Below are positions 33,529 through 58,164 of a stretch of 64,000 nucleotides of DNA, in pieces. Each line of letters opens with the position of its first letter. Positions within the stretch are counted from its first letter, which is position 1. This DNA comes from Christensenellaceae bacterium (GTDB lineage: Bacteria; Bacillota; Clostridia; Christensenellales; Borkfalkiaceae): assembly GCA_045638105.1 (NCBI GenBank), contig JAZUAT010000007.1, forward strand, positions 5,328-69,327, in the 5' to 3' direction. Under the pieces are notes generated by a model. That model did no database searches, was not told the origin of the DNA, and saw only the letters and a program-made list of their open reading frames with translations. The translations under genes and the position numbers were made by a program.

Positions 33529-34389
33529 TTAAATGGTTATAGCGTTTAAGTTTTCTTGCGCGTATTTTTGCCTAAACTCTTTCACCGTTATGCCGTATTC
33601 TTTTTTAAAAACTTTCATAAAATGAAGTTCGTCTTTAAAGCCGACTAATAAGGCGAGTTTTTTTACGGAAAAATTTTTTTCTTTTAAAAGTTCGCCCGCG
33701 CTTTTAAGCCTTTGTTTTACAAGGTATTTAACGGGAGTTATTCCCGTTTTATTTTTAAATAGTTTGCAAATATACGACTTGCTTATAAATAAAATATCCG
33801 CAACGTATTCAACTTTAAATTCGGGGTCTTTATGGTTAAGTTTAATAATTGATTTTACGTTTTCAACCGTGTCTAAATCATAAATAAACTCGCTGTTTTT
33901 ACGGCTAACGGCAAGCCTTGAAGCTATGTTATATAATGCGGAAAGCGTTTTAAAATAACGCTCTTCTTGCGAAATACCCGCTCTATATAGCGAATTTAGC
34001 AAAATATCAACTTCTTTTGGGTTATTGTCGTGATGGATAGGGTTATCAGTTGAAAAGCCCATAGAAAGCCCAAGTTCTTTTGCTCCGCTTCCCACCATAT
34101 AAAACCAATAATATGCCCAAGGGTTATCGCCACTTGGGTAATATTTTATAGGGACGTTTGGTGGTAAAAAGAAAAAATCTCCTTCATAAACGTTAAAAAA
34201 TGTATCGTTTACTTGTAGCGTTCCATTACCCCTTTGAACAAAATGCAAGGTGTAACCGTCTTGCGAGTGTAAAACGTTACGGCTTTTAATATATTTAAAG
34301 TCGTGATACCCAAAGCTGGTAACGCTTAGGTTGGAAAGTGACGGCGTATTGCTAAATTTTAAATGTCTGCGCTGGTATTGTTTGTTCAT
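33529..34389 (-). CDS. AraC-family transcriptional regulator with an N-terminal cupin sensor and C-terminal HTH
   Basis: The C-terminal segment '…VEYVADILFISKSYICKLFKNKTGITPVKYLVKQRLKSAGELL…' is an AraC-type HTH. Confidence 0.75.
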   Translation of the reverse strand: MNKQYQRRHLKFSNTPSLSNLSVTSFGYHDFKYIKSRNVLHSQDGYTLHFVQRGNGTLQVNDTFFNVYEGDFFFLPPNVPIKYYPSGDNPWAYYWFYMVGSGAKELGLSMGFSTDNPIHHDNNPKEVDILLNSLYRAGISQEERYFKTLSALYNIASRLAVSRKNSEFIYDLDTVENVKSIIKLNHKDPEFKVEYVADILFISKSYICKLFKNKTGITPVKYLVKQRLKSAGELLKEKNFSVKKLALLVGFKDELHFMKVFKKEYGITVKEFRQKYAQENLNAITI

Positions 34390-34547
34390 AATGCCCCCTT
34401 TTTTAATAATTATAATAAAAGCGTAGTATACGTGTCAATAAAAAATAATAAAAAAAGACATAATAAAAATCAAAACGACTATTTACAAAGCGTTAAATTT
34501 CATTTATAATGTAATTATTGTAAAAATAATTTTATTAAGGAGAAATT

Positions 34548-35771
34548 ATGAAACCTATAAAAATAGTTGTTTTAGGTTGTGGGCAACGCGGAAGAACGTT
34601 GACGCAAAACGTATTAACGAGAATTGAGGGCGTTGAAATTGCCGGACTTTGCGATACGGGTTGGATTGATAAAGCGGAACACGTTAGAGATTGTCTTAAA
34701 AAAGATTTTAATATAGACGTGCCCGTGTACGACGACCACGTAAAAATGTTTGATGAAGTTAAGCCAGACGCTGTTTTTATTGCAACCAATTGGGAATACC
34801 ACGTTGACCTTGCAACGTATTCTATGGAAAGGGGAATAGCGGTTGCTATGGAAGTTGGCGGAGCGAATTGCGCCGAAGAGTGTTATAGGCTTATTGAAGT
34901 TCAAGAACGCACTAAAACTCCGTTTATGTTTATGGAAAACTGCTGTTTTAACCGCGATGAACTTTTGGCAACGAGCGTTGCAAGAAAAGGGCTTATGGGC
35001 GAAATAGTTTATTGTCACGGCGCTTACGGCCATGACCTTCGCGATGAAGTTTCTTATGGCAAATTAAAAAGAAGCTATCGTTTAAACCATTACCTTACTC
35101 GCAACTGCGAAAACTATCCAACGCACGACCTTGGGCCTATTGCTAAACTTTTAAACATCAACCGTGGCAATAGAATGGTTTCGCTTGTTTCTATGTCGTC
35201 AAAATCGGCAGGCCTTAAAGACTATATTAATGGTAGAGACGATTTGCAAGAACTCAAAGGCGTAGAGTGGGCTCAAAGCGACATTGTTACTACTCTTATT
35301 AAATGCGAAAACGGCGAACTCATTAGCCTTTGCTTAGACACTACCTTACCGCGCTTTTACTCGCGTGAATTTACCGTTCGTGGAACGAAAGGTATGTATA
35401 TGCAAGATAACGATATGATGCTTATTGAAGGCGATTATAATGAAAACGTTTCTCAACTTGATTTTTTCAAGCAAAATCATAATAGTGCAAAAAATTACGA
35501 AAAATATTTGCCTGAATTTTGGAAGAACGTACCGCAAGAAATTTTAGACGCGGGTCACGGCGGTATGGACTATTTTGAATTCGTTGCTTTCTTTGACGCG
35601 CTTAGAAATGGTACTGAAATGCCTATTGACGTTTACGACGCGGCTGCATGGATGAGCATAACATATTTAAGTGAACAATCAATTAAAAATGGCGGTGCGC
35701 CAGTTGACGTGCCAGACTTTACTAACGGGGCTTATAAAACAAGAAAACCAAAAGACGTTGTGGAGTTATAA
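34548..35771 (+). CDS. Gfo/Idh/MocA-family NAD-dependent oxidoreductase, possibly a GH109-like glycosidase fold
   Basis: Rossmann N-terminus 'KIVVLGCGQRGRTL'. 'FMENCCFNRDE' and 'GAYGHDLRDE' are shared with NAD-dependent GH109-type enzymes. Confidence 0.55.
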   Translation: MKPIKIVVLGCGQRGRTLTQNVLTRIEGVEIAGLCDTGWIDKAEHVRDCLKKDFNIDVPVYDDHVKMFDEVKPDAVFIATNWEYHVDLATYSMERGIAVAMEVGGANCAEECYRLIEVQERTKTPFMFMENCCFNRDELLATSVARKGLMGEIVYCHGAYGHDLRDEVSYGKLKRSYRLNHYLTRNCENYPTHDLGPIAKLLNINRGNRMVSLVSMSSKSAGLKDYINGRDDLQELKGVEWAQSDIVTTLIKCENGELISLCLDTTLPRFYSREFTVRGTKGMYMQDNDMMLIEGDYNENVSQLDFFKQNHNSAKNYEKYLPEFWKNVPQEILDAGHGGMDYFEFVAFFDALRNGTEMPIDVYDAAAWMSITYLSEQSIKNGGAPVDVPDFTNGAYKTRKPKDVVEL

Positions 35772-35774
35772 AAA

Positions 35775-36869
35775 ATGGAATTGTTTAAGGAATTAGAGTT
35801 AGTTCTTAAAAATTTTGAAGTTAAGGGAACTCTTATAAGCGCAGAGCCTTACGGCAACGGGCTTATAAATAGAAGTTTTTACGCAGTTTATGAAGATAAC
35901 GGCATTAAAAAACCGTATCTTTTGCAAAAAATAAATTCAAAACTTTTTGACCCTGTTGAAAAGTTAATGCAAAACATTGAACTTGTAACGGAGTTTAACC
36001 GCAAAAAAATAATTGAGCGCGGTGGCAATCCAGACAAGGAAAGTTTAACCCTTATAAAAACGCACGATGGAAAGGCTTATTATAAAACTGAAGACGGCGA
36101 ATATTATAGGCTTTACATCTTTATTGAAGATACAATTGCTCTTCAAAAGGTTGAAAATCCAAAAGATTTTTATTATAGCGCAATAGCATTTGGTAACTTT
36201 AATAATCTTCTTGCCGAGTTTGACGCTTCTAAACTTTATGAAATTTTACCAAATTTCCACAATACAAAAGTCCGCTATCAAAACTTTTTAACCGCTCTTG
36301 AAAAAGACGAGTTTAATAGGGCAAAAGATTGCCAAAAAGAAATTGAATTTATAAAGGCAAGAGAGAGTTATTACGGCAAAATAGTTGATATGCTTGCAAG
36401 CGGTGAAATGCCACTTAAAGTTACTCATAACGACACTAAACTTAACAACGTTTTGCTTGACGATAAAACGGGCGAACCCGTTTGTGTTATTGACCTTGAT
36501 ACTATTATGCCGGGTTCGCTTTGTTACGACTTTGGCGATAGCATTAGGTCGGGTTGTAATTCAAGCGTTGAAGACGAGCAAGATATATCTAAAGTTTATT
36601 TTAGATTAGACCTTTATGAAATTTATCTTAAAGGATATCTTGAAGCGGTTGGAGAAAGAATTACGGATATTGAAAAAGAAAACCTTGCTTTTGGCTCAAT
36701 TTTAATGACGATTGAGTGCGGAATGAGATTTTTAACGGACTACTTAAGTGGCGATACGTATTTTAGAACGCACCGCCCAGGGCAAAATTTAGATAGAACG
36801 AGAACGCAATTAAAATTAGTTGCCGATATGGAAAACGTTTTTGACCAAATGAACGCTTTAGTAAAATAA
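35775..36869 (+). CDS. APH-family (aminoglycoside-phosphotransferase fold) kinase; NahK-like sugar 1-kinase candidate
   Basis: Catalytic-loop 'VTHNDTKLNNVLLD', and the metal-binding 'VIDLDT'. 364 aa. Confidence 0.5.
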   Translation: MELFKELELVLKNFEVKGTLISAEPYGNGLINRSFYAVYEDNGIKKPYLLQKINSKLFDPVEKLMQNIELVTEFNRKKIIERGGNPDKESLTLIKTHDGKAYYKTEDGEYYRLYIFIEDTIALQKVENPKDFYYSAIAFGNFNNLLAEFDASKLYEILPNFHNTKVRYQNFLTALEKDEFNRAKDCQKEIEFIKARESYYGKIVDMLASGEMPLKVTHNDTKLNNVLLDDKTGEPVCVIDLDTIMPGSLCYDFGDSIRSGCNSSVEDEQDISKVYFRLDLYEIYLKGYLEAVGERITDIEKENLAFGSILMTIECGMRFLTDYLSGDTYFRTHRPGQNLDRTRTQLKLVADMENVFDQMNALVK

Positions 36870-36875
36870 AACAAC

Positions 36876-36970
36876 AAAACCACAACAAGCCCAATCCCTA
36901 TAAGGAAGTCTGCTTGTCGTGGTTTTTAATTTACAAATTAAAAAGTAGGCTTTTAGCCTACTATTTTATT
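36876..36970 (+). terminator. Two successive rho-independent terminators
   Basis: aaaccacaacaagc…gcttgtcgtggttttt, then aaaagtaggc-tttt-agcctactatttt. Confidence 0.7.
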
Positions 36971-37048
36971 ATTTTTTATTAGTTAAAATTTTCATAATAG
37001 TTGCCAAATAAATTTAGTTGTGGTAATATATAATAAAAGTTTTAAGGA

Positions 37049-37657
37049 GTGTTTTTAATGATTAGTAAAGAGGCCTTGTTGGCAGCAAAAAACGCATATG
37101 ATATAGAATCTCAATGCATAGAAGAAATGAAAAACTATTTTAACGAAGAAGAATTTTCTAAAGCAGTTGAACTTTTATCAACGGCAACTCGTATTGGAAC
37201 TTGTGGCTGTGGTCACTCAGGCATAATTTGCCAACACTTTGCTCATCTTTTATGTTGTATTGAGCGTCCTGCACGTTTTATTTCTCCTGCGGAAGCAATA
37301 CATGGAGCAACTGGTTTTTTACAAAGTGGAGACGTTATGGTTTTTGCATCACGTGGAGGCGGAACAAAAGAACTTTTTCCAATAATAGACATTTGCAAAA
37401 CAAAAGGCGTTAAAATTATAACCGTTACTGAAAATTTGAGTTCGCCATTAGCGTTATCTGCAGACGTAGTTATTAAGCAATACGTAAATCGCGAAACTGA
37501 CAAATATAATATGCAAGGAACAACTAGCACTACTGCGCTTTGTATGTTGTTCCACGCTCTTCAAACTGCTATAATAGAAGAAACAGGCTACCAAAAAGAG
37601 CAATTTGCCGTTATTCATCCAGGTGGAGCAGTAGGAGAAAGGCTTAATAAAAAATAA
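37049..37657 (+). CDS. SIS (sugar isomerase) domain protein
   Basis: 'RIGTCGCGHSGIICQHFAHLLCCIERPARFISPAEAIHG' is a SIS phosphosugar-binding fold. 202 aa. Confidence 0.6.
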   Translation: MFLMISKEALLAAKNAYDIESQCIEEMKNYFNEEEFSKAVELLSTATRIGTCGCGHSGIICQHFAHLLCCIERPARFISPAEAIHGATGFLQSGDVMVFASRGGGTKELFPIIDICKTKGVKIITVTENLSSPLALSADVVIKQYVNRETDKYNMQGTTSTTALCMLFHALQTAIIEETGYQKEQFAVIHPGGAVGERLNKK

Positions 37658-37794: not shown

Positions 37795-38550
37795 TTATTG
37801 TTGTTGATATTTTTTATATTCGGTAGGCGATAGTCCAACGGCTTCTTTAAACGATTTTGAAAAGTGGAATTGGTCGCAAAACCCAACGTTTAAGGCAATT
37901 TCGTTAATGCTTAAGTTTGAAGAAGTTAGCAAAAGTTTTGCTTGTTCAAACCTAAAGTCGTTTATAGTTTTTTTAGGTGCTGTATTAGAGCAGTTTAAAA
38001 ATATTCTTCTTAAATGTACGGGCGAAATTCCAACTTCTTTTGCTAAACTTTCAACGGAAAAGTTTTGCTCGCGGTATTTTTTTACAATGATTTCCATTGC
38101 TTTTGAAAATATTTTATAGGAATTAGAGTACTTTTTATTTTTTGCAGTTATAAGTTCGCAATAAATGCGGTTTATAATTTCATACGCTCTAGGAGTTTTC
38201 ATTGGCGTTGGGTTAAGCCAATTATAAAGCGACTTGTAAAAATCGTTTTTAGTATGCTTCATATTTTTAAGCGCTATTGGCGAAAGCCCCTTTTTATTAA
38301 AAGAAAAATCAATGCAAACGTATTTTGCACTTTCTTTAACTAAAATGTTATAATCGCCACCTTCAGGAAGATATAAAACGTCACCTTCTTGAACGCTAAT
38401 AGTAACGTTTTTAAACAAATAGTCCGCTTTTCCTTTTAAAACGTAACAAAATCCGTCGTGCTTGCGTTTTTCATTGCGTTTTATAAATGCAGGGTTAAAT
38501 TCGCCCTCATAACTAGCGTAAATATTTTCAATAATTAGATTGTTTTCCAT
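37795..38550 (-). CDS. AraC-family transcriptional regulator, divergent from the glycyl radical enzyme gene
   Basis: Cupin-like N-terminus, and C-terminal HTH '…VESLAKEVGISPVHLRRIFLNCSNTAPKKTINDFRFEQAKLLL…'. Confidence 0.75.
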   Translation of the reverse strand: MENNLIIENIYASYEGEFNPAFIKRNEKRKHDGFCYVLKGKADYLFKNVTISVQEGDVLYLPEGGDYNILVKESAKYVCIDFSFNKKGLSPIALKNMKHTKNDFYKSLYNWLNPTPMKTPRAYEIINRIYCELITAKNKKYSNSYKIFSKAMEIIVKKYREQNFSVESLAKEVGISPVHLRRIFLNCSNTAPKKTINDFRFEQAKLLLTSSNLSINEIALNVGFCDQFHFSKSFKEAVGLSPTEYKKYQQQ

Positions 38551-38718
38551 ATATCTACCAACGTTAAAATTTAACTAACTATTAGTTAATATACAAATAT
38601 TTTAGCATAGGCAGGCAATTTTGTCAATATTAAATGTTCTAAAAACACATAATGTTTTATATGCGCATTTACATTTGAAGTTGTAAATTGATATGATAAT
38701 AATGCAAAGGAGAATTAT

Positions 38719-40911
38719 ATGGCAAACTTTTTTGAAAACAGAAAATTTATTGAAAATGAATTTAAAAACGCTAATTATGATGTGGCTACCGGTAAAAGTG
38801 TAGAAGAACTTGAACAAACGCTTATTGAAATGCAGGAAAATAGCACGCTAGATGAAGACCGTGAACTTTTTTGTGCAAACGCCTATGCGTATTTACTTAA
38901 AAACGCAAGGCTTGAAATTAACGAACGCACGCCGTTTTCAGTAAAATTTGACCTTGGCGTAACCTATTTTAAACACGCCGGTTGGGACGTTTTTGACAAA
39001 ATTATTTTTAGAAGACAAAGAGAAAAGGTTTTAGGCGCAAAACTTCCAAAAGAGTACAAAAAAATGTGCGATTGGCAAGAAGTTGGATTGGGAGACGTGT
39101 TTACCGACTTTTGGCATACCGTTCCAAATTGGAACAACCTTTTAAAATACGGTTTTAGCGGAATTTTAGAAAGTGCCAAACAAAGCAAGGAAAATCTTTT
39201 AAAAAATAACGACGAGCGTGGCGTTAGGTTTTTAAATTCGCTTATTATTAGGTACGAGGCAATAATTGAGTTTTTAGAAAGGGTTTATAACTACTCGTTA
39301 AACTTTAACGTGCAAAAATTTTCGCAAGCGGTAAAAAATTTAATTAGCAATCCGCCAAAAACTTTGTACGAAGTAATGCTATTTCAAGTATTTTATCTCT
39401 ATTTTGAAGAAATTGGGCCAGAAAGGGGTAGAACGCTTGGCGCTATAGACGCGCTCTATTACGATTTTTACAAAGCCGAACTTGATAGCGGTACGAGTTT
39501 AGAAGAAATCAAAGATTTATTTAGATATCTCTTTATTCACTTTGTTGCAAGCAAGCGTTTTGCGCAACAACCATTTTTAGTAGGCGGTTCTAACCTTGAC
39601 GGAAGCGATAGGTGTAACGAACTCACTTATCTTATTTTAGACGTTTACGATGAACTTAATATTTACGACCCTAAAATACATTTACGCTATCATAAAAACG
39701 TAGACCAAAAAGTTTTAACAAAAGTTCTTGATATGATAAGGCGTGGCAACAGCAGTATTTGTATTATTAACGATGAAGCCGTTTTAAAAGGTTATGAAAA
39801 AATAGGAATTGGTAAAGAAGACGCCATAAATTACGTTTTGCTTGGCTGTTACGAACCCGTTGTTATGGGGCTTGAAGAACCTGAAGTTGGCGTTTCTTGG
39901 CTCAATGCAGTTAAGCCTATTGAGTTTACGCTAAATAATGGTAAAGATATTTTACAAGATAGGCAAATTGGCATAACTCAAAACAGCAATTTTGCTACTT
40001 TTGATGAATTTTTTGAAGCGTACCTTAACGAACTTGACGCAATTATTGATTTTACCATTGATTTTGCTGGCAAGCAAAGTAAGTATAATACGCTTGTAAA
40101 TCCGTCTCCAATATATTCTTCGTCTTTTACTGCTTGCATTGAAAAGGGGAGAGACGTTCACGAATATCCATTAAAATACAACAATATGTCAATAAAATGT
40201 TTTGGGCTTGGCACGGTTGTTGATAGCCTTGTTGCTATCAAAAAGTTTGTGTACGACCAAAAAATTATAACTTTAAAAGAATTTGTAAATGCCCTCAAAC
40301 AAAACTTTGAAGGATACGAAGAATTAAGAACTAAAATTTTAAACGATAGCGATAAATACGGCAACGGCTTACCGCTTCCTGATGAAATTATGGTTAAAAT
40401 CACTTCGCATCTAGGCAAAAAATATTGCGGTAAAGTTGTTAATGACAATAGGCGTTTACGCCTTGGGCTTGACTCAATAGACACGCACATTAGCAGGGGT
40501 AGGGACACTTCTGCTACGCCTTGCGGTAGAAAAGCAGGCACGCCAATTTCACGCAATCTTTGTGCAACGGCTGGCAAAGATAGGGAAGGCATAACGGGCT
40601 ATATGCAAAGCGTTTTAAAAATTGATTCTTCTGCGTTTTTAGATTCCGCTATATTTGACTTTACTTTACACCCATCTGCAATAGAAGGCGACAAGGGGCT
40701 TAAAGATTTTACTTCGCTTGTAAAAGTGTTCTTTGAAAGCGGCGGATTTGGGATGCAAGGCAATATCGTTAATAAGGAAACGCTTAAAAAAGCGCAAGAA
40801 GACCCTATCAAATATTCAACACTTCAAATAAGGGTGTGCGGTTGGAACGAGTATTTTGTTAAGATGTCAAAGAGCAAGCAAGATTACTTTATTTCCGCAG
40901 TAGAGGACTAA
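38719..40911 (+). CDS. Glycyl radical enzyme (PFL-fold) of the single-Cys eliminase/dehydratase type. Substrate unknown.
   Basis: C-terminal glycyl-radical motif 'TLQIRVCGWNEYFV'. Active-site loop 'LLGCYEPVV' (Cys plus Glu, as in glycerol dehydratase and CutC-type GREs). 730 aa. Immediately followed by its activase. Confidence 0.75.
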   Translation: MANFFENRKFIENEFKNANYDVATGKSVEELEQTLIEMQENSTLDEDRELFCANAYAYLLKNARLEINERTPFSVKFDLGVTYFKHAGWDVFDKIIFRRQREKVLGAKLPKEYKKMCDWQEVGLGDVFTDFWHTVPNWNNLLKYGFSGILESAKQSKENLLKNNDERGVRFLNSLIIRYEAIIEFLERVYNYSLNFNVQKFSQAVKNLISNPPKTLYEVMLFQVFYLYFEEIGPERGRTLGAIDALYYDFYKAELDSGTSLEEIKDLFRYLFIHFVASKRFAQQPFLVGGSNLDGSDRCNELTYLILDVYDELNIYDPKIHLRYHKNVDQKVLTKVLDMIRRGNSSICIINDEAVLKGYEKIGIGKEDAINYVLLGCYEPVVMGLEEPEVGVSWLNAVKPIEFTLNNGKDILQDRQIGITQNSNFATFDEFFEAYLNELDAIIDFTIDFAGKQSKYNTLVNPSPIYSSSFTACIEKGRDVHEYPLKYNNMSIKCFGLGTVVDSLVAIKKFVYDQKIITLKEFVNALKQNFEGYEELRTKILNDSDKYGNGLPLPDEIMVKITSHLGKKYCGKVVNDNRRLRLGLDSIDTHISRGRDTSATPCGRKAGTPISRNLCATAGKDREGITGYMQSVLKIDSSAFLDSAIFDFTLHPSAIEGDKGLKDFTSLVKVFFESGGFGMQGNIVNKETLKKAQEDPIKYSTLQIRVCGWNEYFVKMSKSKQDYFISAVED

Positions 40912-40914
40912 AAA

Positions 40915-41787
40915 ATGATTTTTGCAATTAAGAGATTTGAAACGCACGATGGTGATGGAATTAGAACAACCGTATTTTTTAAAGGTTGCCCTTTAAGGTG
41001 CGTGTGGTGCCACAATCCCGAATCGTTTAGCTTCAAAAAAGAAATGGCGTTTAACCCTGAACTTTGCGTTAACTGCTTAAGGTGTACTACTTTATGTACG
41101 GCAAATCAAGTGGAAAACGGCAAGCATATTTTTAAAAGGGAAAATTGTGTAAAGTGCGGTAAGTGCTTAGAAGTTTGCCCGTCACGTGTTTTTACGCTTT
41201 ACGGCGAGGAGCGTACCGCAAAAGATATAGCTACGGAAGTACTGCGTGACAAAATGTTTTTTGACGGGTCAGGTGGCGGTGTAACGCTATCTGGCGGAGA
41301 GCCTTTAATGCAACAAGACTTATGTTACGAACTTGCAAAACTTTTAAAAGAAAACGGAGTTAACGTAGCAATAGACACGTGCGGTTACGTTGAAAAAAGC
41401 GTAATAGAGAAAATTTTGCCGTACGTTGATACGTTTTTATATGATATAAAAGCAATAGATCCTCTTGTTCATAAAAAGTGTACAGGCGTTACAAACGAAG
41501 TAATTTTAGAAAATTTAAAATTTATAGACGATGCGGGTAAAAAGATAGAAATTAGAATTCCTTTTGTTCCAAATTTTAATGACGGCGAAATTTTAAAAAT
41601 GGCAAATTTTATAAAAGATTTAAAAAACATTGAAAAAGTTCGCGTTTTGGCGTATCATAAATATGCGGAAATGAAATATATTTCTCTTGGAATTTTAGAC
41701 AATTCGCCAAGTGAACTTCCAACAAAAGAGCAATTAGAAAACGCGCGTAAAACTATAAAAGACGTTACGGGTTTTGAAGTTTTATAA
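40915..41787 (+). CDS. Glycyl-radical-enzyme activating protein (radical SAM plus ferredoxin-like clusters)
   Basis: 'GCPLRCVWCHNPE' carries the CxxxCxxC motif. Two extra Cys clusters: 'CVNCLRCTTLC' and 'CVKCGKCLEVCP'. 290 aa. Confidence 0.85.
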   Translation: MIFAIKRFETHDGDGIRTTVFFKGCPLRCVWCHNPESFSFKKEMAFNPELCVNCLRCTTLCTANQVENGKHIFKRENCVKCGKCLEVCPSRVFTLYGEERTAKDIATEVLRDKMFFDGSGGGVTLSGGEPLMQQDLCYELAKLLKENGVNVAIDTCGYVEKSVIEKILPYVDTFLYDIKAIDPLVHKKCTGVTNEVILENLKFIDDAGKKIEIRIPFVPNFNDGEILKMANFIKDLKNIEKVRVLAYHKYAEMKYISLGILDNSPSELPTKEQLENARKTIKDVTGFEVL

Positions 41788-41798
41788 AGGAGAGAAAA

Positions 41799-43949
41799 AT
41801 GAAATTTAATCAAAATTGGTTAGGTTATAGAATTCATAACGGAGAAAAGAGCAAGCCTTTTAAAGTAGAAGTGCCTGGAAATATTCAATATGACTATGGC
41901 GTAGCAAACAATTTTAAGGACGTGTACTTTAATGATGGTTGCCGTCAATACGAGTGCCTTGAAGACGACGCTTGGGAATATGAATCAACCCTTAACTATA
42001 CAAAAAATGACGGAGAAAGCGTGTTTTTTATAAGTGATGGTATTGACTATAAATACCAAATTTATATAAACGATACAAAACTTTTTGAAAACGAAGGTAT
42101 GTATGCTCCCGTTGAACTTGACTTAACCAAATATTTAACGGGTAGTGACGTATTGTCTATTAAAATAGCACCGCACCCTAAAAGGGTTGGCGCTCCAAAA
42201 GACAGAAACGAAGCCGACCACTCTGCAAAACCGCCAATGTGCTACGGGTGGGACTGGAATCCACGTCTTTTAATTTCGGGTTTATACGCTAGTGCGTATA
42301 TTGAAACGCGTAGCGAATATTATATTTCTAATCCGCAAGTTACTTATAAATTAAGCGATGATTTTAGCGTGGCTAACGTTGAGTTTAAGTTTGATAGCAA
42401 AGTTTTATCAACCATAACTTTATATGACGACTATTCAAACGTTGTTTATAGCGGAGAGCAAAAAACCTTTGACGTATTAAGCCCTAAACTTTGGTGGTGT
42501 AGTGGCGAAGGCGAGCAAACGCTTTATACTTACGTCGTTGAAAATAGAGGCTATAGTGTTAGCGGAAAAATCGGCTTTAGAAGAGCAAAACTTGTTGAAA
42601 ACAACGGCGCGTGGACAAAGCCAGGCTTCCCTAAAGGTCCTGAAAATCCGCCTATCACGTTAGAACTTAACGGAAGACGCATATTTATGAAAGGCTCTAA
42701 CTTTGTTAATGCAGATATATTCCCTGGTAGAACTCCATACGAACGCTACTTTGAACTTGTTCGCCTTGCAAAAGACGCTAATATGAACATATTTAGAATG
42801 TGGGGTGGCTCTGGGCCAATGCACAAATGTTTTTACGAAATTTGTGATGAACTTGGCATTATGGTTTGGCAAGAATTTATGCTTTCTTGCAACAAATATC
42901 CAAATGAAGAGCATTATTTAGAAGTTTTAGAAAAAGAAGCAAAAAGCGTAATTTTAAATTTAATTAAACACCCTTGCTTAGTAATGTGGTGCGGTGGCAA
43001 CGAACTCTTTAATGGTTGGTCGGGTATGGATGAGCAAAGTTTACCACTTCGCTTGCTTGATAAACTTTGTTATGAATATAGTAGAGATTTGCCGTTTATA
43101 AAAACTTCTCCAATAATGGGTATGGCACACGGTGGTTACACTTTTTACGATGAAGTTAGATTTGGCGGAGATATGTTTAACGAATTTCAAAGGGCAAACA
43201 ATACGGCTTATACGGAGTTCGGCGTTCCGTCAATTGCACCGCTTGAAGTGCTTAAAAAGATTATTCCTGAAAACGAAATTTTCCCTATTGAAGAAACTGA
43301 AAGTTATATTCTTCATCACGCTAAAAAGGCTTGGCGTGGCGATACTTGGGCTTGCACCGATATTTTAGAGCGTTATTTTGGCAAAGCCGAAAGCATTGAA
43401 GATTTAATTGCGCAGTCAAATTGGATTCAATGTGAAGGCTACCGCGCGTCTTTTGAAGAAATGCGTAAACAATGGCCAGTTTGTAGTGCTGCACTAAATT
43501 GGGTTTATAACGAGCCTTGGTACACCGCCGCAAACAATAGCATTTTAGTTTTCCCTGCAACGCCAAAGCCAGCGTACTATGCAATTAAAAGTGCGCTTCG
43601 CCCAACTATTTTTAGCGCACGCGTGCCTAAATTCAAATGGATAGAAGGCGAAAAGTTTAAAGCTGAAATTTGGCTTTTAAACGATAGCAACAAAGAAGTT
43701 GAATTAAGTGCAAAAGTTTATTTAAAAATAGGCGACAACAAGATTTTACTTTTAGAAAAGGTTAGTGGAAAAGCAAGTGCAAAAACTAACGTAGAATGTG
43801 CTTCCGTATGTACAATTCTTCCTGAAGTTCAAGGAACTGACGATATGCACCTTGTAATTGAAAGCGACAAAGAATATTCAAACGAATATCGTTTAAGATA
43901 CGAGCCGTTCAAAAAAATTGTTAAGCCTAAAATTTTAAACGACGTATAA
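41799..43949 (+). CDS. Glycoside hydrolase family 2 protein (beta-mannosidase/beta-galactosidase-like)
   Basis: N-terminal sugar-binding and Ig-like domains followed by a TIM barrel ('NGRRIFMKGSNFVNADIFPGR', 'NMNIFRMWGGSGP', 'WQEFMLSCNKYPN', 'MWCGGNELFNGW'). Confidence 0.75.
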   Translation: MKFNQNWLGYRIHNGEKSKPFKVEVPGNIQYDYGVANNFKDVYFNDGCRQYECLEDDAWEYESTLNYTKNDGESVFFISDGIDYKYQIYINDTKLFENEGMYAPVELDLTKYLTGSDVLSIKIAPHPKRVGAPKDRNEADHSAKPPMCYGWDWNPRLLISGLYASAYIETRSEYYISNPQVTYKLSDDFSVANVEFKFDSKVLSTITLYDDYSNVVYSGEQKTFDVLSPKLWWCSGEGEQTLYTYVVENRGYSVSGKIGFRRAKLVENNGAWTKPGFPKGPENPPITLELNGRRIFMKGSNFVNADIFPGRTPYERYFELVRLAKDANMNIFRMWGGSGPMHKCFYEICDELGIMVWQEFMLSCNKYPNEEHYLEVLEKEAKSVILNLIKHPCLVMWCGGNELFNGWSGMDEQSLPLRLLDKLCYEYSRDLPFIKTSPIMGMAHGGYTFYDEVRFGGDMFNEFQRANNTAYTEFGVPSIAPLEVLKKIIPENEIFPIEETESYILHHAKKAWRGDTWACTDILERYFGKAESIEDLIAQSNWIQCEGYRASFEEMRKQWPVCSAALNWVYNEPWYTAANNSILVFPATPKPAYYAIKSALRPTIFSARVPKFKWIEGEKFKAEIWLLNDSNKEVELSAKVYLKIGDNKILLLEKVSGKASAKTNVECASVCTILPEVQGTDDMHLVIESDKEYSNEYRLRYEPFKKIVKPKILNDV

Positions 43950-43963
43950 ACAAGGAGTTTGTT

Positions 43964-44602
43964 ATGGAATTAAAAGATAAAATCGTTTTATGTTTAGGAG
44001 ACTCTATAACCTACGCCAACGAATATTTAGAAGAGTTAAAAAGGCTATCGGGCGCAAAAGAAGTTGTTAATTACGGCGTTGCTGGCACAACCATAGCAAA
44101 GCGCAAAAAACTACTTGGCAACCGCTACGATGAAGACTTTTTAATGCGTTTAGAAACTATGCAACAAGAAGGCGACTTAATTGTTGTTTTTGGCGGTACT
44201 AACGACTACGGCCACGGCGACGTGCCTATCGGTTTAGAAACCGACACTACGCTTGATACTTTTAGCGGAAACGTTAGAATTTTAATAAATATGTTAAGGG
44301 AAAAGTATAAAAACGTTCCTATAATATTTATAACACCGCTTCATAGAATAAACGAAGATGACGTTCACGGCGAATTCGGCTTAAAACCTACCGCTATGGG
44401 TACGCTTAAACAATACGTTGACGCGCTTATAAAAGTTTTAAAATTAGAAAACGTTAATATTTTAGACCTTTATAACGATAGTGATTTTAGTTTTGATAAC
44501 GAACTTTTCCGTTCTTACGTTAAAGTTGACGGCTTGCACCCTAACGACGACGGCCATAGAGCAATAGCCAAAAAACTATATGAGTTTATATTAAAAATGT
44601 AA
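43964..44602 (+). CDS. SGNH/GDSL-family hydrolase (esterase or deacetylase)
   Basis: Block I 'IVLCLGDSITY', 'GGTNDY', and a C-terminal 'DGLHPN' (DxxH). Confidence 0.7.
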   Translation: MELKDKIVLCLGDSITYANEYLEELKRLSGAKEVVNYGVAGTTIAKRKKLLGNRYDEDFLMRLETMQQEGDLIVVFGGTNDYGHGDVPIGLETDTTLDTFSGNVRILINMLREKYKNVPIIFITPLHRINEDDVHGEFGLKPTAMGTLKQYVDALIKVLKLENVNILDLYNDSDFSFDNELFRSYVKVDGLHPNDDGHRAIAKKLYEFILKM

Positions 44603-44605
44603 TTA

Positions 44606-44638
44606 AAAACCACGGGTTTTCACCCGTGGATTTTTTAT
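44606..44638. terminator. Bidirectional terminator
   Basis: ccacgggt-tttc-acccgtgg, flanked by aaaaa and ttttttatttt. Confidence 0.75.
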
Positions 44639-44639
44639 T

Positions 44640-45224
44640 TTATTTATGAAGTTCGTCGTGAATATAGTTAAAGTTTGAAACAAGGTCGTTTCCAATTTTG
44701 TCATAAATACGCTTAAAGTCATAAAGTACTGCTTTAGATTCCTTTAAGTTTTTAACCGTACGGCTTATATAAACGTCAACAGTGTCTTTATAAAAACCAA
44801 AGCGTACTTGTGGGTAAGTTTGCTTTAAGTGTGCTTGCGTTTTAACGTAATCTTTCATAGGTAAACCGCTAAAAATAACTTTAACAGACGTGTTGTAAAC
44901 GTAAGGGCCTAAACCTTCACGTTCTTTGCCAAAAATTTTAGTTTTATAGTAGTACCTGTCTCTACTAAAAGAAGCTTCTGCAGTAAAAGTGTTTTTGTAC
45001 GCTGTTGCAAAAAGATGAGTTATTGAATAAGTTGCGTACCAACCTTCGTTAGAAACTTTGCAATCAATACCGCTTTTTCTATAAGAGCGCGGAGCTTTTG
45101 CCAAATTAAAACCAGGCAAAACTTTTTTAAACATTGGAATTGCATCCATTGGTTTAATGCCAAAAATACGGCATTTTAAATTTGTAATTTTCATTTTTAA
45201 AAGTTCTTTTATAGACTTAAACAT
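44640..45224 (-). CDS. Hypothetical protein (194 aa); no recognisable motif
   Basis: ORF with good coding-like composition. Basic and aromatic-rich. Not assignable by eye. Confidence 0.35.
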   Translation of the reverse strand: MFKSIKELLKMKITNLKCRIFGIKPMDAIPMFKKVLPGFNLAKAPRSYRKSGIDCKVSNEGWYATYSITHLFATAYKNTFTAEASFSRDRYYYKTKIFGKEREGLGPYVYNTSVKVIFSGLPMKDYVKTQAHLKQTYPQVRFGFYKDTVDVYISRTVKNLKESKAVLYDFKRIYDKIGNDLVSNFNYIHDELHK

Positions 45225-45302
45225 ACTTAAAACTCCTATAATTTATATGATGTTGTAAAAATTATAGCACAATTAAATATGAATTTCAATACTTTTTAAA
45301 AA

Positions 45303-46799
45303 TTACTTTGCCGTTACCGCTTTTAGTTCCCTTTGCATCGCTAAATTTTTTAACTTTTGCTCTTTTTTAAAGTTTTTATAAGCGGAAACTCCTTGCTCCA
45401 TTGCCATTGGAAGTCCCCCAGGGGCGCTATTCCATTGCGAAGCAACAATAGCGTTTTTTACCCCGTTTACGTTTTGCTTATTTTTAACGGGTAGTTTGTT
45501 TTTTGGTATAACGTTAGCCATATACGCTCCGTTACTATGCCCCGTATATCGGCTATAGGAAGCTGGCGTCCACGCGTCAATAAGTTCTATTTTCCCTTGA
45601 AGGAAAGGGTATTCTTTTTCAATAGTTTTGATGCAAATTTTAGCAACGGCAAGTTTATGTTTTTGGTATTTTTGAAGGTTGGTTTTGCGTAGTTTTATCC
45701 ACTTGCGTGAACTTTCAAGCGAGCAAATAAACATTGTTTCTATTAAAATTTTTCCGTTTTTTACGCTGTTTTTAATATAAGGAAAATTTCTAACGGTTAG
45801 CGTTTTTCCAATATATTTAGAATATGGTGGGTCTACTAAAAGCAAGGTTTCATCTGAAAACGGCAAATGTTTTTCGTCAATTAAAAGGGCAGTGTGAAAA
45901 CTTGAAAAAGTATTATTTTTAACTTTTTCAAATTGCGTGGGCAGTTTTAAATTTAAAATTTTAGAGTATGCGGTTTCTATATCCGTACAAAATATTGCAT
46001 AATCAAAATTAACTTCGCCTTTATTTTTAATCATAATACTTTCCACCTTTTTATTTACTATTTTTGCGCCTATAACCTCACTATTAACGTAAATTTTACC
46101 GCCTAAACTTAAAAATTTACGTCGCATATTGTTTGCCATTTCAATAGAGCCACCCTCTGGAATTCCGCCGTTGCCCGACACAAAAGTTGCGTATGCTATA
46201 ATTAAAGCAAGGCTACTAAACTCGCCTTGAATATATCCGCCCATAACCATTTTTAAAAGTGGGTGCTTAAACTTGCTTGCTAGGTCTTCACAACTTAAAT
46301 TTACGTATCTTGCTAAAGCGCAAAGCGACGTTATTTTAGTTAACAAGGAAGTGTTTTTATCGTTATTTTTGCCCGCCATATCTAAAAGGTTGACAACGCT
46401 TTTTACTGCAGATATAAAAAGTTTAATTTCACGCCTATCTTCAAGGCTAACTAATAGCATTTGGCTATAAGTTTTTTCAATATTTTTAAAAAGGCTTAAA
46501 GTCTGCTCTTTGTATTTGGCGGTAAAAAAAGCGTCCGCATAATAAATTGCAACACCGTCAAGCGCACCAACTTCTTTCCAAATTTTGTAATGTGGAGATT
46601 TTGGGTTAGTGCCCGTTAGCCAATGAATACAATTATCAATTTCATATCCTTGCCTATACCAGCCTGTAAGATTTCCGCCAACCACGCCACACTTTTCATA
46701 AAGCTCAACGTTAAACCCGTCTTTTAATAAATATATTCCTGCAGTTAGCCCCGCAACGCCACCGCCAATTATACAAACTTTTACTCTATTATTTTCCAT
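45303..46799 (-). CDS. FAD/NAD(P)-binding oxidoreductase (phytoene-desaturase/amine-oxidase-like fold)
   Basis: N-terminal dinucleotide-binding motif 'VCIIGGGVAGLTAGIYLLKDGFNVELYEKCGVVGG'. 498 aa. Confidence 0.6.
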   Translation of the reverse strand: MENNRVKVCIIGGGVAGLTAGIYLLKDGFNVELYEKCGVVGGNLTGWYRQGYEIDNCIHWLTGTNPKSPHYKIWKEVGALDGVAIYYADAFFTAKYKEQTLSLFKNIEKTYSQMLLVSLEDRREIKLFISAVKSVVNLLDMAGKNNDKNTSLLTKITSLCALARYVNLSCEDLASKFKHPLLKMVMGGYIQGEFSSLALIIAYATFVSGNGGIPEGGSIEMANNMRRKFLSLGGKIYVNSEVIGAKIVNKKVESIMIKNKGEVNFDYAIFCTDIETAYSKILNLKLPTQFEKVKNNTFSSFHTALLIDEKHLPFSDETLLLVDPPYSKYIGKTLTVRNFPYIKNSVKNGKILIETMFICSLESSRKWIKLRKTNLQKYQKHKLAVAKICIKTIEKEYPFLQGKIELIDAWTPASYSRYTGHSNGAYMANVIPKNKLPVKNKQNVNGVKNAIVASQWNSAPGGLPMAMEQGVSAYKNFKKEQKLKNLAMQRELKAVTAK

Positions 46800-58088: not shown

Positions 58089-58164
58089 TGGGGCGTCGCC
58101 AAGCGGTAAGGCTACGGACTCTGACTCCGTCACTTCGTTGGTTCAAATCCTACCACCCCAGCCA
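58089..58164 (+). tRNA. tRNA-Gln (anticodon CUG)
   Basis: Cloverleaf with D-arm 'GCCAAGCGGTAAGGC', anticodon loop 'CTCTGAC' (anticodon CUG), and T-arm 'GGTTCAAATCC'. The 3' end 'ACCCCAGCCA' closely resembles bacterial tRNA-Gln. Confidence 0.8.

Follow-up and report, generated by a model that had tools for sequence, protein, structure and literature searches.

This analysis concerns a small gene cluster in a 64,000-nt stretch of DNA from an uncultured gut Clostridia, a Christensenellaceae bacterium (assembly GCA_045638105.1, contig JAZUAT010000007.1, positions 5,328 to 69,327 of the forward strand; hereafter the window). The cluster encodes a glycyl radical enzyme (GRE), its activating enzyme (activase), a glycoside hydrolase family 2 (GH2) protein, an SGNH esterase and a divergently transcribed AraC-family regulator. 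An earlier reading of the same DNA, made from its letters and translated open reading frames (ORFs) and hereafter called the original prediction, had proposed these five genes, and we found all five at the positions it gave (Table 1). The AraC gene and the four-gene operon form one unit with a hairpin at its end. Within the operon the genes are separated by only 3 nt (GRE-activase), 11 nt (activase-GH2) and 14 nt (GH2-SGNH). In the closest locus found in another genome (L001, from a Clostridia metagenome-assembled genome [MAG] of water-buffalo caecum), the GRE is 93% identical to that of the window, and the DNA is 85% identical over 37807-44598, almost exactly the five genes.

Table 1. Features of the GRE locus and of the adjoining upstream operon, in window positions.
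Feature	Position	Strand	Evidence and remarks
AraC-family regulator, 251 aa	37795-38550	-	Pfam HTH_18 6e-21, HTH_AraC 6e-16; divergent from GRE operon
Divergent control region, 168 bp	38551-38718		Promoter-like sites in both directions and GRE ribosome-binding site
GRE, 730 aa	38719-40911	+	Pfam PFL-like 6e-88 (PF02901), Gly_radical 1.6e-20 (PF01228)
GRE-activating radical-SAM enzyme (activase), 290 aa	40915-41787	+	TIGR02494, 327 bits vs cut-off 174
GH2-like glycosidase, beta-mannosidase-like subgroup, 716 aa	41799-43949	+	PF22666 (Glyco_hydro_2_N2) 7e-20, PF00703, PF02836
SGNH/GDSL esterase, 212 aa	43964-44602	+	Pfam Lipase_GDSL_2 (PF13472) 2.5e-21
Bidirectional intrinsic-terminator-like hairpin	44610-44629		8-bp stem, 6 G-C pairs, T-runs on both strands
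GH109 alpha-N-acetylgalactosaminidase homologue	34548-35771		2ixa 9e-80
N-acetylhexosamine 1-kinase NahK homologue	35775-36869		4wh1 1e-90
SIS-domain protein	37049-37657		3fxa 1e-43

The control region between the divergent genes holds, as consensus matches only, a -35/-10 pair on each strand (38627-38599 on the minus strand, matching at 11/12 positions, and 38668-38697 on the plus strand, matching at 10/12) and a Shine-Dalgarno sequence, AAAGGAG, just 5' of the GRE start codon, the ATG at 38719. No convincing direct-repeat AraC operator was found in these 168 bp, and an Rfam search of the 64-kb window revealed neither a riboswitch nor any other RNA element at the locus or close to it. The sole Rfam match in the window was one tRNA gene (58089-58161, plus strand). 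The original prediction had called the region a glycan-utilisation locus, a description that fits the compact operon with its GH2 and SGNH genes but not the outer flanks. Apart from the adjoining operon described at the end of this text, the flanking genes are unrelated. Those downstream encode a protein without known function, an FAD oxidoreductase and ClpB; those further upstream are PaaK-like, ACT and SPFH genes.

We aligned the GRE with PflB, PflD and YbiW of E. coli. Its glycyl loop reads R705-V-C-G708-W709 (40831-40845, with the G708 codon at 40840-40842), and its cysteine loop reads G376-C377-Y378-E379-P380 (39844-39858, with the C377 codon at 39847-39849). G708 aligns with PflB G734, and C377 with PflB C419, YbiW C441 and PflD C431, so that both motifs are genuine and correctly aligned. 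Because G376 occupies the position of PflB C418, the window GRE has no Cys-Cys pair. E379 aligns with the Glu of the Cys-X-Glu (CXE) motif (YbiW E443, PflD E433), which is kept by all GRE C-O eliminases and isomerases (PMC13450708). A phmmer alignment to 1r8w places H133 (codon 39115-39117) on His164 of glycerol dehydratase (GDH), and YbiW and PflD also have a His at this position. In GDH, the departing hydroxyl receives its proton from His164, and the CXE Glu takes the proton of the carbinol OH (PMC13450708). On these alignments the window GRE carries the catalytic set of a C-O-cleaving eliminase or isomerase, and not that of a pyruvate formate-lyase (PFL), a decarboxylase or an X-succinate synthase, in agreement with its earlier assignment to the dehydratase/lyase type. 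The RVCGW motif, real at residues 705-709, had also been described as unusual; it nevertheless satisfies the general GRE C-terminal fingerprint RVxG[FWY] (PMC11528403) and is a clade signature rather than an aberration.

Alignments with CutC place R236 at the position of CutC T334 and GDH S282, F281 and F286 at CutC F389 and F395, and W394 at CutC Y506. The CutC residues named here, among which are the counterparts of GDH S282 and Y339, have roles in the active site. The activase has the CX3CX2C motif (C25-x3-C29-x2-C32) and two ferredoxin-like CX2CX2CX3C motifs, at residues 51 and 78.

The structure prediction and active-site comparison that had been suggested for this protein gave a confident AlphaFold2 (AF2) model (pLDDT 89.7, pTM 0.89) in addition to the aligned catalytic residues. 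Foldseek matched the model to 50 GRE chains with template-modelling (TM) scores of 0.82-0.87 and identities of 18-25%, and the PF02901 match, the model and the Foldseek hits all indicate a PFL-like 10-stranded barrel. The Foldseek comparison with the PDB gave no clue to the substrate, as all eliminases scored a TM of ~0.85 at 20-25% identity.

The window GRE is not close to any characterised GRE, as had been claimed. Using NCBIfam equivalog cut-offs as a test of membership in orthologue groups, we found that its best match is the generic PFL2-3 subfamily TIGR01774, at 309 bits against a cut-off of 678. Scores for all other families missed their cut-offs widely: HypD 271/1100, HpsG-type 257/1000, CutC 247/1050, HpfG-type 228/1000, PRK09983 226/1109, HPAD 192/1150, IAD 176/1100 and PFL (TIGR01255) 56/994. 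Membership in HypD, CutC, the sulfopropanediol dehydratases HpsG/HpfG, PFL/TdcE, HPAD and IAD was ruled out on this basis. The best PDB sequence matches by phmmer were CutC (237 bits) and HypD (235 bits), and the protein is only ~20-30% identical to any solved GRE. The solved PFL-like GREs that matched over most of their length have 759-897 aa, all longer than the 730 aa of the window GRE, and so the claim that it is short held as well; the difference is due to its N-terminal ~125 residues, which are divergent, and to the trimming of several loops.

Although the window GRE is distant from characterised enzymes, it has many close relatives. A word-indexed search returned 313 proteins at E <= 0.001. 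The best 120 of these are 53-92% identical to the window GRE and nearly all 721-769 aa long, with three shorter partial sequences; where a source name is given, in a few cases, it is 'hypothetical protein' or 'formate C-acetyltransferase'. In 119 aligned relatives (at least 53% identity), both RVCGWNEYF and GCYEP are invariant. We then queried one genome per species, for 185,579 species, with both motifs and obtained 78 related loci, all from MAGs, whose GREs range from 93% down to 33% identity to that of the window. Their labels are nearly all Clostridia, Christensenellaceae, Oscillospiraceae or Eubacteriales, and the named sources are the guts of ruminants, humans, rabbits and chickens. An exhaustive phmmer search of 1.84 billion cluster representatives (50% identity clusters) gave 1518 matches at E <= 1e-30. 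The best 150 of these clusters all outscore the best characterised GRE, with R[VLI]CGW present in ~110 and GCYE in ~99 of the 150. These short 'CGW/GCYE' GREs form a large clade that is, as far as could be found, undescribed.

The residues conserved across this clade include more than the catalytic set. The Gly, Cys and Glu are invariant across ~200 relatives, and G708, C377, E379 and H133 are all invariant in 82 CGW-type GREs from genome loci. In the same 82 proteins a series of polar residues that differ from YbiW, PflD and PflB is also invariant: D130, E231, E235, R238, K319, S346, Y378, E386, N489, R581, S586, N613, D647 and H651, which we placed on predicted barrel strands from DSSP positions. 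The same is true of Q703, C707, W709, N710 and Y712 in the glycyl loop. Many of these residues (D130, E235, R238, K319, Y378, E386, N489, R581, D647 and H651), together with W138, would fit a polyhydroxylated ligand. Other positions switch between subclades, namely 389 (E/R), 488 (N/R), 615 (C/R) and 274 (H/K). This pattern of conservation suggests a common scaffold-binding and catalytic framework with diversified specificity.

We next called and clustered the ORFs, and annotated cluster representatives, in all 79 loci. A gene of the AraC cluster lies divergent and immediately upstream in 56 of the 77 cases in which a CGW-type GRE gene has an upstream neighbour in view, and an activase gene follows immediately downstream of 63 of 84 CGW-type GRE genes. 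GH2 directly follows the activase only in the window and L001-L004, L007 and L018 (seven of 35 relatives with at least 50% identity); it occurs elsewhere in the operon or locus in L008 (further down the operon), L022, L035 and L043, of which L008 and two others belong to the 35. The SGNH cluster of the window itself is found in only three loci, the window included. The conserved core of the system is thus AraC, GRE and activase, with GH2 and SGNH as lineage-specific partners. The partner set named in the original prediction (divergent AraC, GH2 and SGNH) is present in the window, but only AraC and the activase are conserved, and the set as a whole cannot be generalised to the clade.

Carbohydrate-related partners nevertheless recur. 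Among 71 partner genes that are co-directional and closely spaced, a Pfam census counted GH2_N2 9 times, GDSL 8, GH43 4, the GH2 TIM barrel 4, apiosidase-like 2, SDR 2, BNR_2 2 and ROK 1. Of the 79 loci, 13 have small SGNH esterases, from several unrelated sequence clusters, encoded on the same strand one to six genes downstream. An iterated profile had put SGNH proteins in 25 loci, a figure that we discarded: it had drawn in ~1370-aa proteins (cluster c3), and because a seed-only profile does not recover these proteins and a PDB search shows them to carry a GH43 domain, we do not treat them as SGNH and keep the count of 13. These ~1370-aa surface proteins, with their GH43 arabinofuranosidase-like domain, are the commonest partner in distant subclades. 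Other recurring neighbours are sugar-type solute-binding proteins, GFO/IDH/MocA and SDR oxidoreductases, GH28 and apiosidase-like proteins, and ROK proteins occur in or near some operons of the clade.

The strongest evidence for a link to carbohydrates comes from natural fusions found in the exhaustive phmmer search. In these proteins a GRE domain with the motifs of the clade lies C-terminal to a GH78-like rhamnosidase (P0227, 1509 aa), a GH2 beta-mannosidase-like enzyme (P0252, 1533 aa, and P0270, 1540 aa, two clusters that are 84% identical), an AXE1 acetyl-xylan esterase (P0256, 1153 aa) or an SASA acetylesterase (P0243, 1025 aa). All the fusion genes sit in operons of carbohydrate-active enzymes (CAZymes), with GH51, GH92, GH127 and GH2. 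One such operon encodes an AraC hybrid regulator, a radical-SAM activase, GH51, GFO/IDH/MocA, a beta-helix protein, the AXE1-GRE and an AGE-type epimerase; another the SASA-GRE, GH2 and GH127; and a third GH127, the GH78-GRE, three GH92 genes and GH2. All four contigs with fusion loci (L082-L085) come from one ENA assembly series (ERZ272470xx-ERZ272471xx). Two pairings that are neighbouring genes in the window, GRE plus GH2 beta-mannosidase-like enzyme and GRE plus acetyl esterase, are found in these fusions within one polypeptide. The clade as a whole is tied to carbohydrate-active enzymes, and this carbohydrate link is strong, stronger than the original prediction could have known from a single locus. 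What is new here is a functional clade of GRE eliminases/isomerases whose association with glycosidases and carbohydrate esterases, covalent in part, has no precedent.

The window's own partner enzymes look catalytically competent and cytoplasmic, judging by their motifs and N-termini. The best PDB matches of the GH2 protein are the beta-mannosidases 5n6u (7e-50) and 2vjx (BtMan2A). It has the GH2 N-terminal, Ig and TIM-barrel domains, and the alignment to 5n6u spans WCGGNE and TEFG, which contain the putative acid/base Glu (in GGNE, 399-402) and the putative nucleophile Glu (in TEFG, 472-475). The SGNH protein, whose best PDB match is 3dc7 (4e-22), has block I (GDS, residue 12), block III (GGTND, 77) and block V (DGLH, 189). 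Neither protein has a signal-peptide-like N-terminus.

Taken together, these observations lead us to favor the view that the operon is a working GRE system of a previously uncharacterised clade, and that it probably carries out C-O chemistry on a small carbohydrate-derived substrate. This view draws on the catalytic set, the cognate activase 3 nt downstream, the confident fold, the operon spacing and the CAZyme links. From the gene content, motifs, fold, clade, operon, recurrent CAZyme association and fusions described above, we infer radical formation, C-O chemistry, the order of steps and the kind of substrate as follows. The activase would set a radical on G708, from which it would move to C377. 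The C377 thiyl would then take a hydrogen from a hydroxyl-bearing carbon of the substrate, and E379, the CXE Glu, would deprotonate that hydroxyl, leaving a ketyl radical. Cleavage of the vicinal C-O bond would follow, H133 would protonate the leaving oxygen, and C377 would give the hydrogen atom back, for a net dehydration, alcohol elimination or ring-opening isomerisation. In the lineage of the window, the substrate would most likely arise in the cytoplasm after import of an O-acetylated glycoside or oligosaccharide: the SGNH esterase would de-acetylate it, unmasking hydroxyls, the GH2 exo-glycosidase would free the unit for the GRE, and the divergent AraC regulator would sense the substrate. 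The original prediction of a novel radical C-O or C-C cleavage is narrowed accordingly, as the catalytic residues point to C-O and nothing supports C-C specifically.

Several points weigh against this view. Most relatives with at least 50% identity have only AraC, GRE and activase among unrelated neighbours, so GH2 and SGNH are not obligatory partners. The operon in the window lacks a transporter, and it encodes no enzyme that would handle the expected carbonyl product. The active site was assigned from alignments and DSSP strand positions, which makes the lining of the pocket a prediction, and the invariant R238, K319 and R581 could equally mean an anionic substrate, a phosphate or a carboxylate. 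In the literature we found no paper on the clade, on GREs with GH2/SGNH partners or on a 'CGW' motif, and no experiment on any member.

A bolder and more doubtful extension of the same chemistry is that the CGW/GCYE GREs are a new radical class of CAZyme that breaks, under anoxia, C-O bonds that hydrolases cannot handle. The target would be, for example, a glycosidic, ring or methyl-ether bond beside a free hydroxyl, and the reaction a C2-radical/C1-O (or vicinal C-O) elimination as in YbiW and PflD. Dozens of paralogues would be tuned to units of plant or host glycans, each under an AraC sensor of its own, and some would carry as a fused domain the esterase or glycosidase by which their substrate is prepared.

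Among the rival explanations, the one that survives best, though we consider it unlikely, is a radical glycoside or ether lyase in which a hydrogen is abstracted at C2 or another carbinol carbon and an exocyclic O-substituent, not water, is eliminated. The leaving group would be the aglycone, yielding a 1,5-anhydro-ketose, or the methoxy of a methylated sugar, and the enzyme would be a new kind of CAZyme for linkages beyond the reach of the accompanying hydrolases. In YbiW and PflD the hydrogen is abstracted at C2 and it is the C1-O bond that breaks (PMC13450708), and H133 is positioned to protonate an oxygen leaving group. The genetics are also compatible: the GRE sits with exo-glycosidases and esterases, as a fusion or in an array, in the fashion of a CAZyme module, genomes contain many paralogues, each with an AraC of its own, and the partners are of the rhamnogalacturonan II/pectin type (apiosidase-like, GH28, GH78, GH127, GH43), whose substrates bear methyl ethers and acetyl esters. 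The hypothesis, however, rests on chemical analogy only, and GRE active sites are buried, with substrates that are usually small.

The closest chemical precedent is also the source of a second rival. YbiW and PflD are the 1,5-anhydroglucitol-6-phosphate and 1,5-anhydromannitol-6-phosphate C-O lyases, GRE isomerases of 'anhydroglycolysis', and according to a 2026 review they are the sole sugar-acting GREs, with whole GRE clades still unassigned (PMC13450708). The window GRE has in common with them the single Cys, the CXE Glu, the His at the GDH H164 position and the 10-stranded barrel (TM 0.83-0.84), and PflD likewise has an AraC-type neighbour, yijO. The window GRE could therefore be conceived as a YbiW/PflD-like isomerase of a phosphorylated sugar or anhydro-alditol whose kinase is encoded elsewhere. 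Invariant basic R238, K319 and R581 could bind a phosphate, ROK proteins are present in or near some operons, as noted above, and in the window a NahK-type kinase operon lies 1 kb upstream. Yet these three residues are not matched by basic residues in YbiW/PflD, to which the window GRE is just 24-26% identical, and its NCBIfam and PDB scores for them are no better than for other eliminases. It is also 35-80 residues shorter, with trimmed loops, and its glycyl and cysteine loops differ (CGWNEYF vs AGYSAFF; GCYEP vs GCIET or GCVEL). The loci differ as well: the E. coli genes have partners for a phosphotransferase system (PTS), an FSA-type aldolase and a phosphatase, all missing from the window operon, whereas the clade has GH2, SGNH, GH43 and similar partners and most of its loci lack kinases. 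We regard an isomerase of this kind as improbable.

Still less probable is a substrate outside carbohydrate metabolism, a small diol, glycerol or an amino alcohol, with the adjacency of GH2 and SGNH incidental. This would agree with a clade-wide unit of just AraC, GRE and activase and with the absence of a GH2/SGNH neighbour from most close relatives. But the conserved residues are highly polar and probably unlike the small pockets of the GDH/propanediol dehydratase type. B12-independent GDH and 1,2-propanediol dehydratase share with the window GRE the CXE motif and the general-acid His (H133 on H164) at TM 0.84-0.87; identity to those enzymes is 22-23%, R236 stands in place of GDH S282/CutC T334, and the window GRE has many extra invariant charged residues. 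Nor does it have a genetic context of a microcompartment, aldehyde dehydrogenase or other aldehyde-processing genes, while four independent fusion architectures with CAZyme or esterase domains, and GH and esterase partners that recur across divergent subclades, speak for carbohydrates. CutC and HypD, which give the top phmmer scores, have the CXE motif in common with the window GRE, but their substrate-binding residues are not conserved in it. The general-acid position in CutC is Asp216, not His.

Finally, a non-radical PFL-fold pseudoenzyme or a PFL-type keto-acid formate-lyase is very improbable: the window GRE shares with PFL the general fold, the Gly radical domain and the type of activase, but the invariance of Gly, Cys and Glu in the relatives and the retention of the cognate activase noted above speak against a pseudoenzyme, and the missing Cys-Cys pair with G376 at PflB C418, the lack of an alignment to an Arg176-type site, the ~20% identity and the 56 bits to the PFL model speak against a formate-lyase. 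The aminoacyl radical enzymes (AAREs; Fu et al. 2024, PMC11528403), another GRE group recognised only recently, resemble the window clade in coming mostly from gut MAGs, in having no assigned function and in being closest to eliminases; in them, however, Ala, Ser or Thr replaces the radical Gly, whereas the window clade keeps an invariant Gly708.

If the preferred reading, C-O chemistry on a small carbohydrate-derived substrate, is correct, its interest would extend beyond this operon. GREs give anaerobes reactions that are otherwise chemically inaccessible, and with every clade assigned so far in this way (CutC, HypD, IslA, YbiW/PflD) a physiologically important gut pathway has come to light. 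The present clade is a large one, since ~110 or more clusters at 50% identity outscore any characterised GRE against the window protein, and in the genomes scanned it was found only in uncultured bacteria, with gut as the named source. Its genetic wiring places it in glycan catabolism, where the only radical step known so far is the ring opening of anhydro-sugar phosphates by YbiW/PflD, and its repeated linkage and fusion to sugar-cleaving and de-acetylating enzymes points to radical chemistry in the anaerobic breakdown of plant or host glycans. The GH2, GH78, AXE1 and SASA fusions and the compact operon of the window are directly clonable systems, and they narrow the candidate substrates to deacetylated units of mannan, pectin, arabinan or host glycans released by exo-glycosidases. 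Identifying the reaction would add an enzyme class to the carbohydrate-active repertoire and could explain how some recalcitrant sugar modifications are removed without O2.

Several further features of these loci are of interest. Seven loci contain two CGW-type GREs each, often in tandem AraC-GRE-activase cassettes. Such cassettes, with their two GREs within ~10 kb, occur in L006, L041, L043, L045, L046, L047 and L053 (also in L005, L019, L067 and L078), and they pair either two CGW-type GREs or one CGW-type GRE with a GRE of another type. Several MAGs have two or three separate loci, for example JAZNSH01 (L022, L038), SVSB01 (L048, L067) and JAXFQY01 (L052, L066, L076). The tandem cassettes and multiple loci suggest that paralogues have expanded much as polysaccharide utilisation loci do.

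Large partner proteins of 640-860 aa without a Pfam match also recur beside the GREs, in clusters c8 (L078:17388-19973, plus strand, and eight other loci), c33 (L041:5849-8065, minus strand), c26 (L011:13409-15328, plus strand) and c35 (L047:13451-15787, plus strand). For the 861-aa c8 protein we found no Pfam family, and its sole PDB sequence match was marginal (E 0.0077, 17.7 bits). These recurrent proteins may be undescribed glycan-active families that co-occur with the GREs.

Other short GRE homologues near the loci (L031:882-3071, minus strand, and P0240, P0246, P0248 and P0254) have odd glycyl loops, RLWGVSAYF, RVWGY, RVHGY and RIWGF, with a bulky residue directly before the Gly. In the L031 protein (L031_1), a pattern search did not find the GC.E motif of the cysteine loop.

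In the window, a separate operon with its own AraC regulator (33529-37657) adjoins the GRE locus upstream and encodes the GH109, NahK and SIS-domain proteins of Table 1. Of the relatives, only the closest (L001, L002 and L007) have it next to their GRE operon, and it shares 78% DNA identity with L001. From its gene content it looks like a salvage module for glycosides of N-acetylgalactosamine or N-acetylglucosamine, of the host-glycan type, and a functional link to the GRE operon is possible. On the other side, convergent with the GRE operon at 44640-46799 on the minus strand, lie a 194-aa ORF without a family match and a 498-aa FAD-dependent oxidoreductase resembling amine oxidases and phytoene desaturases; these two genes are not kept beside the GRE in relatives.

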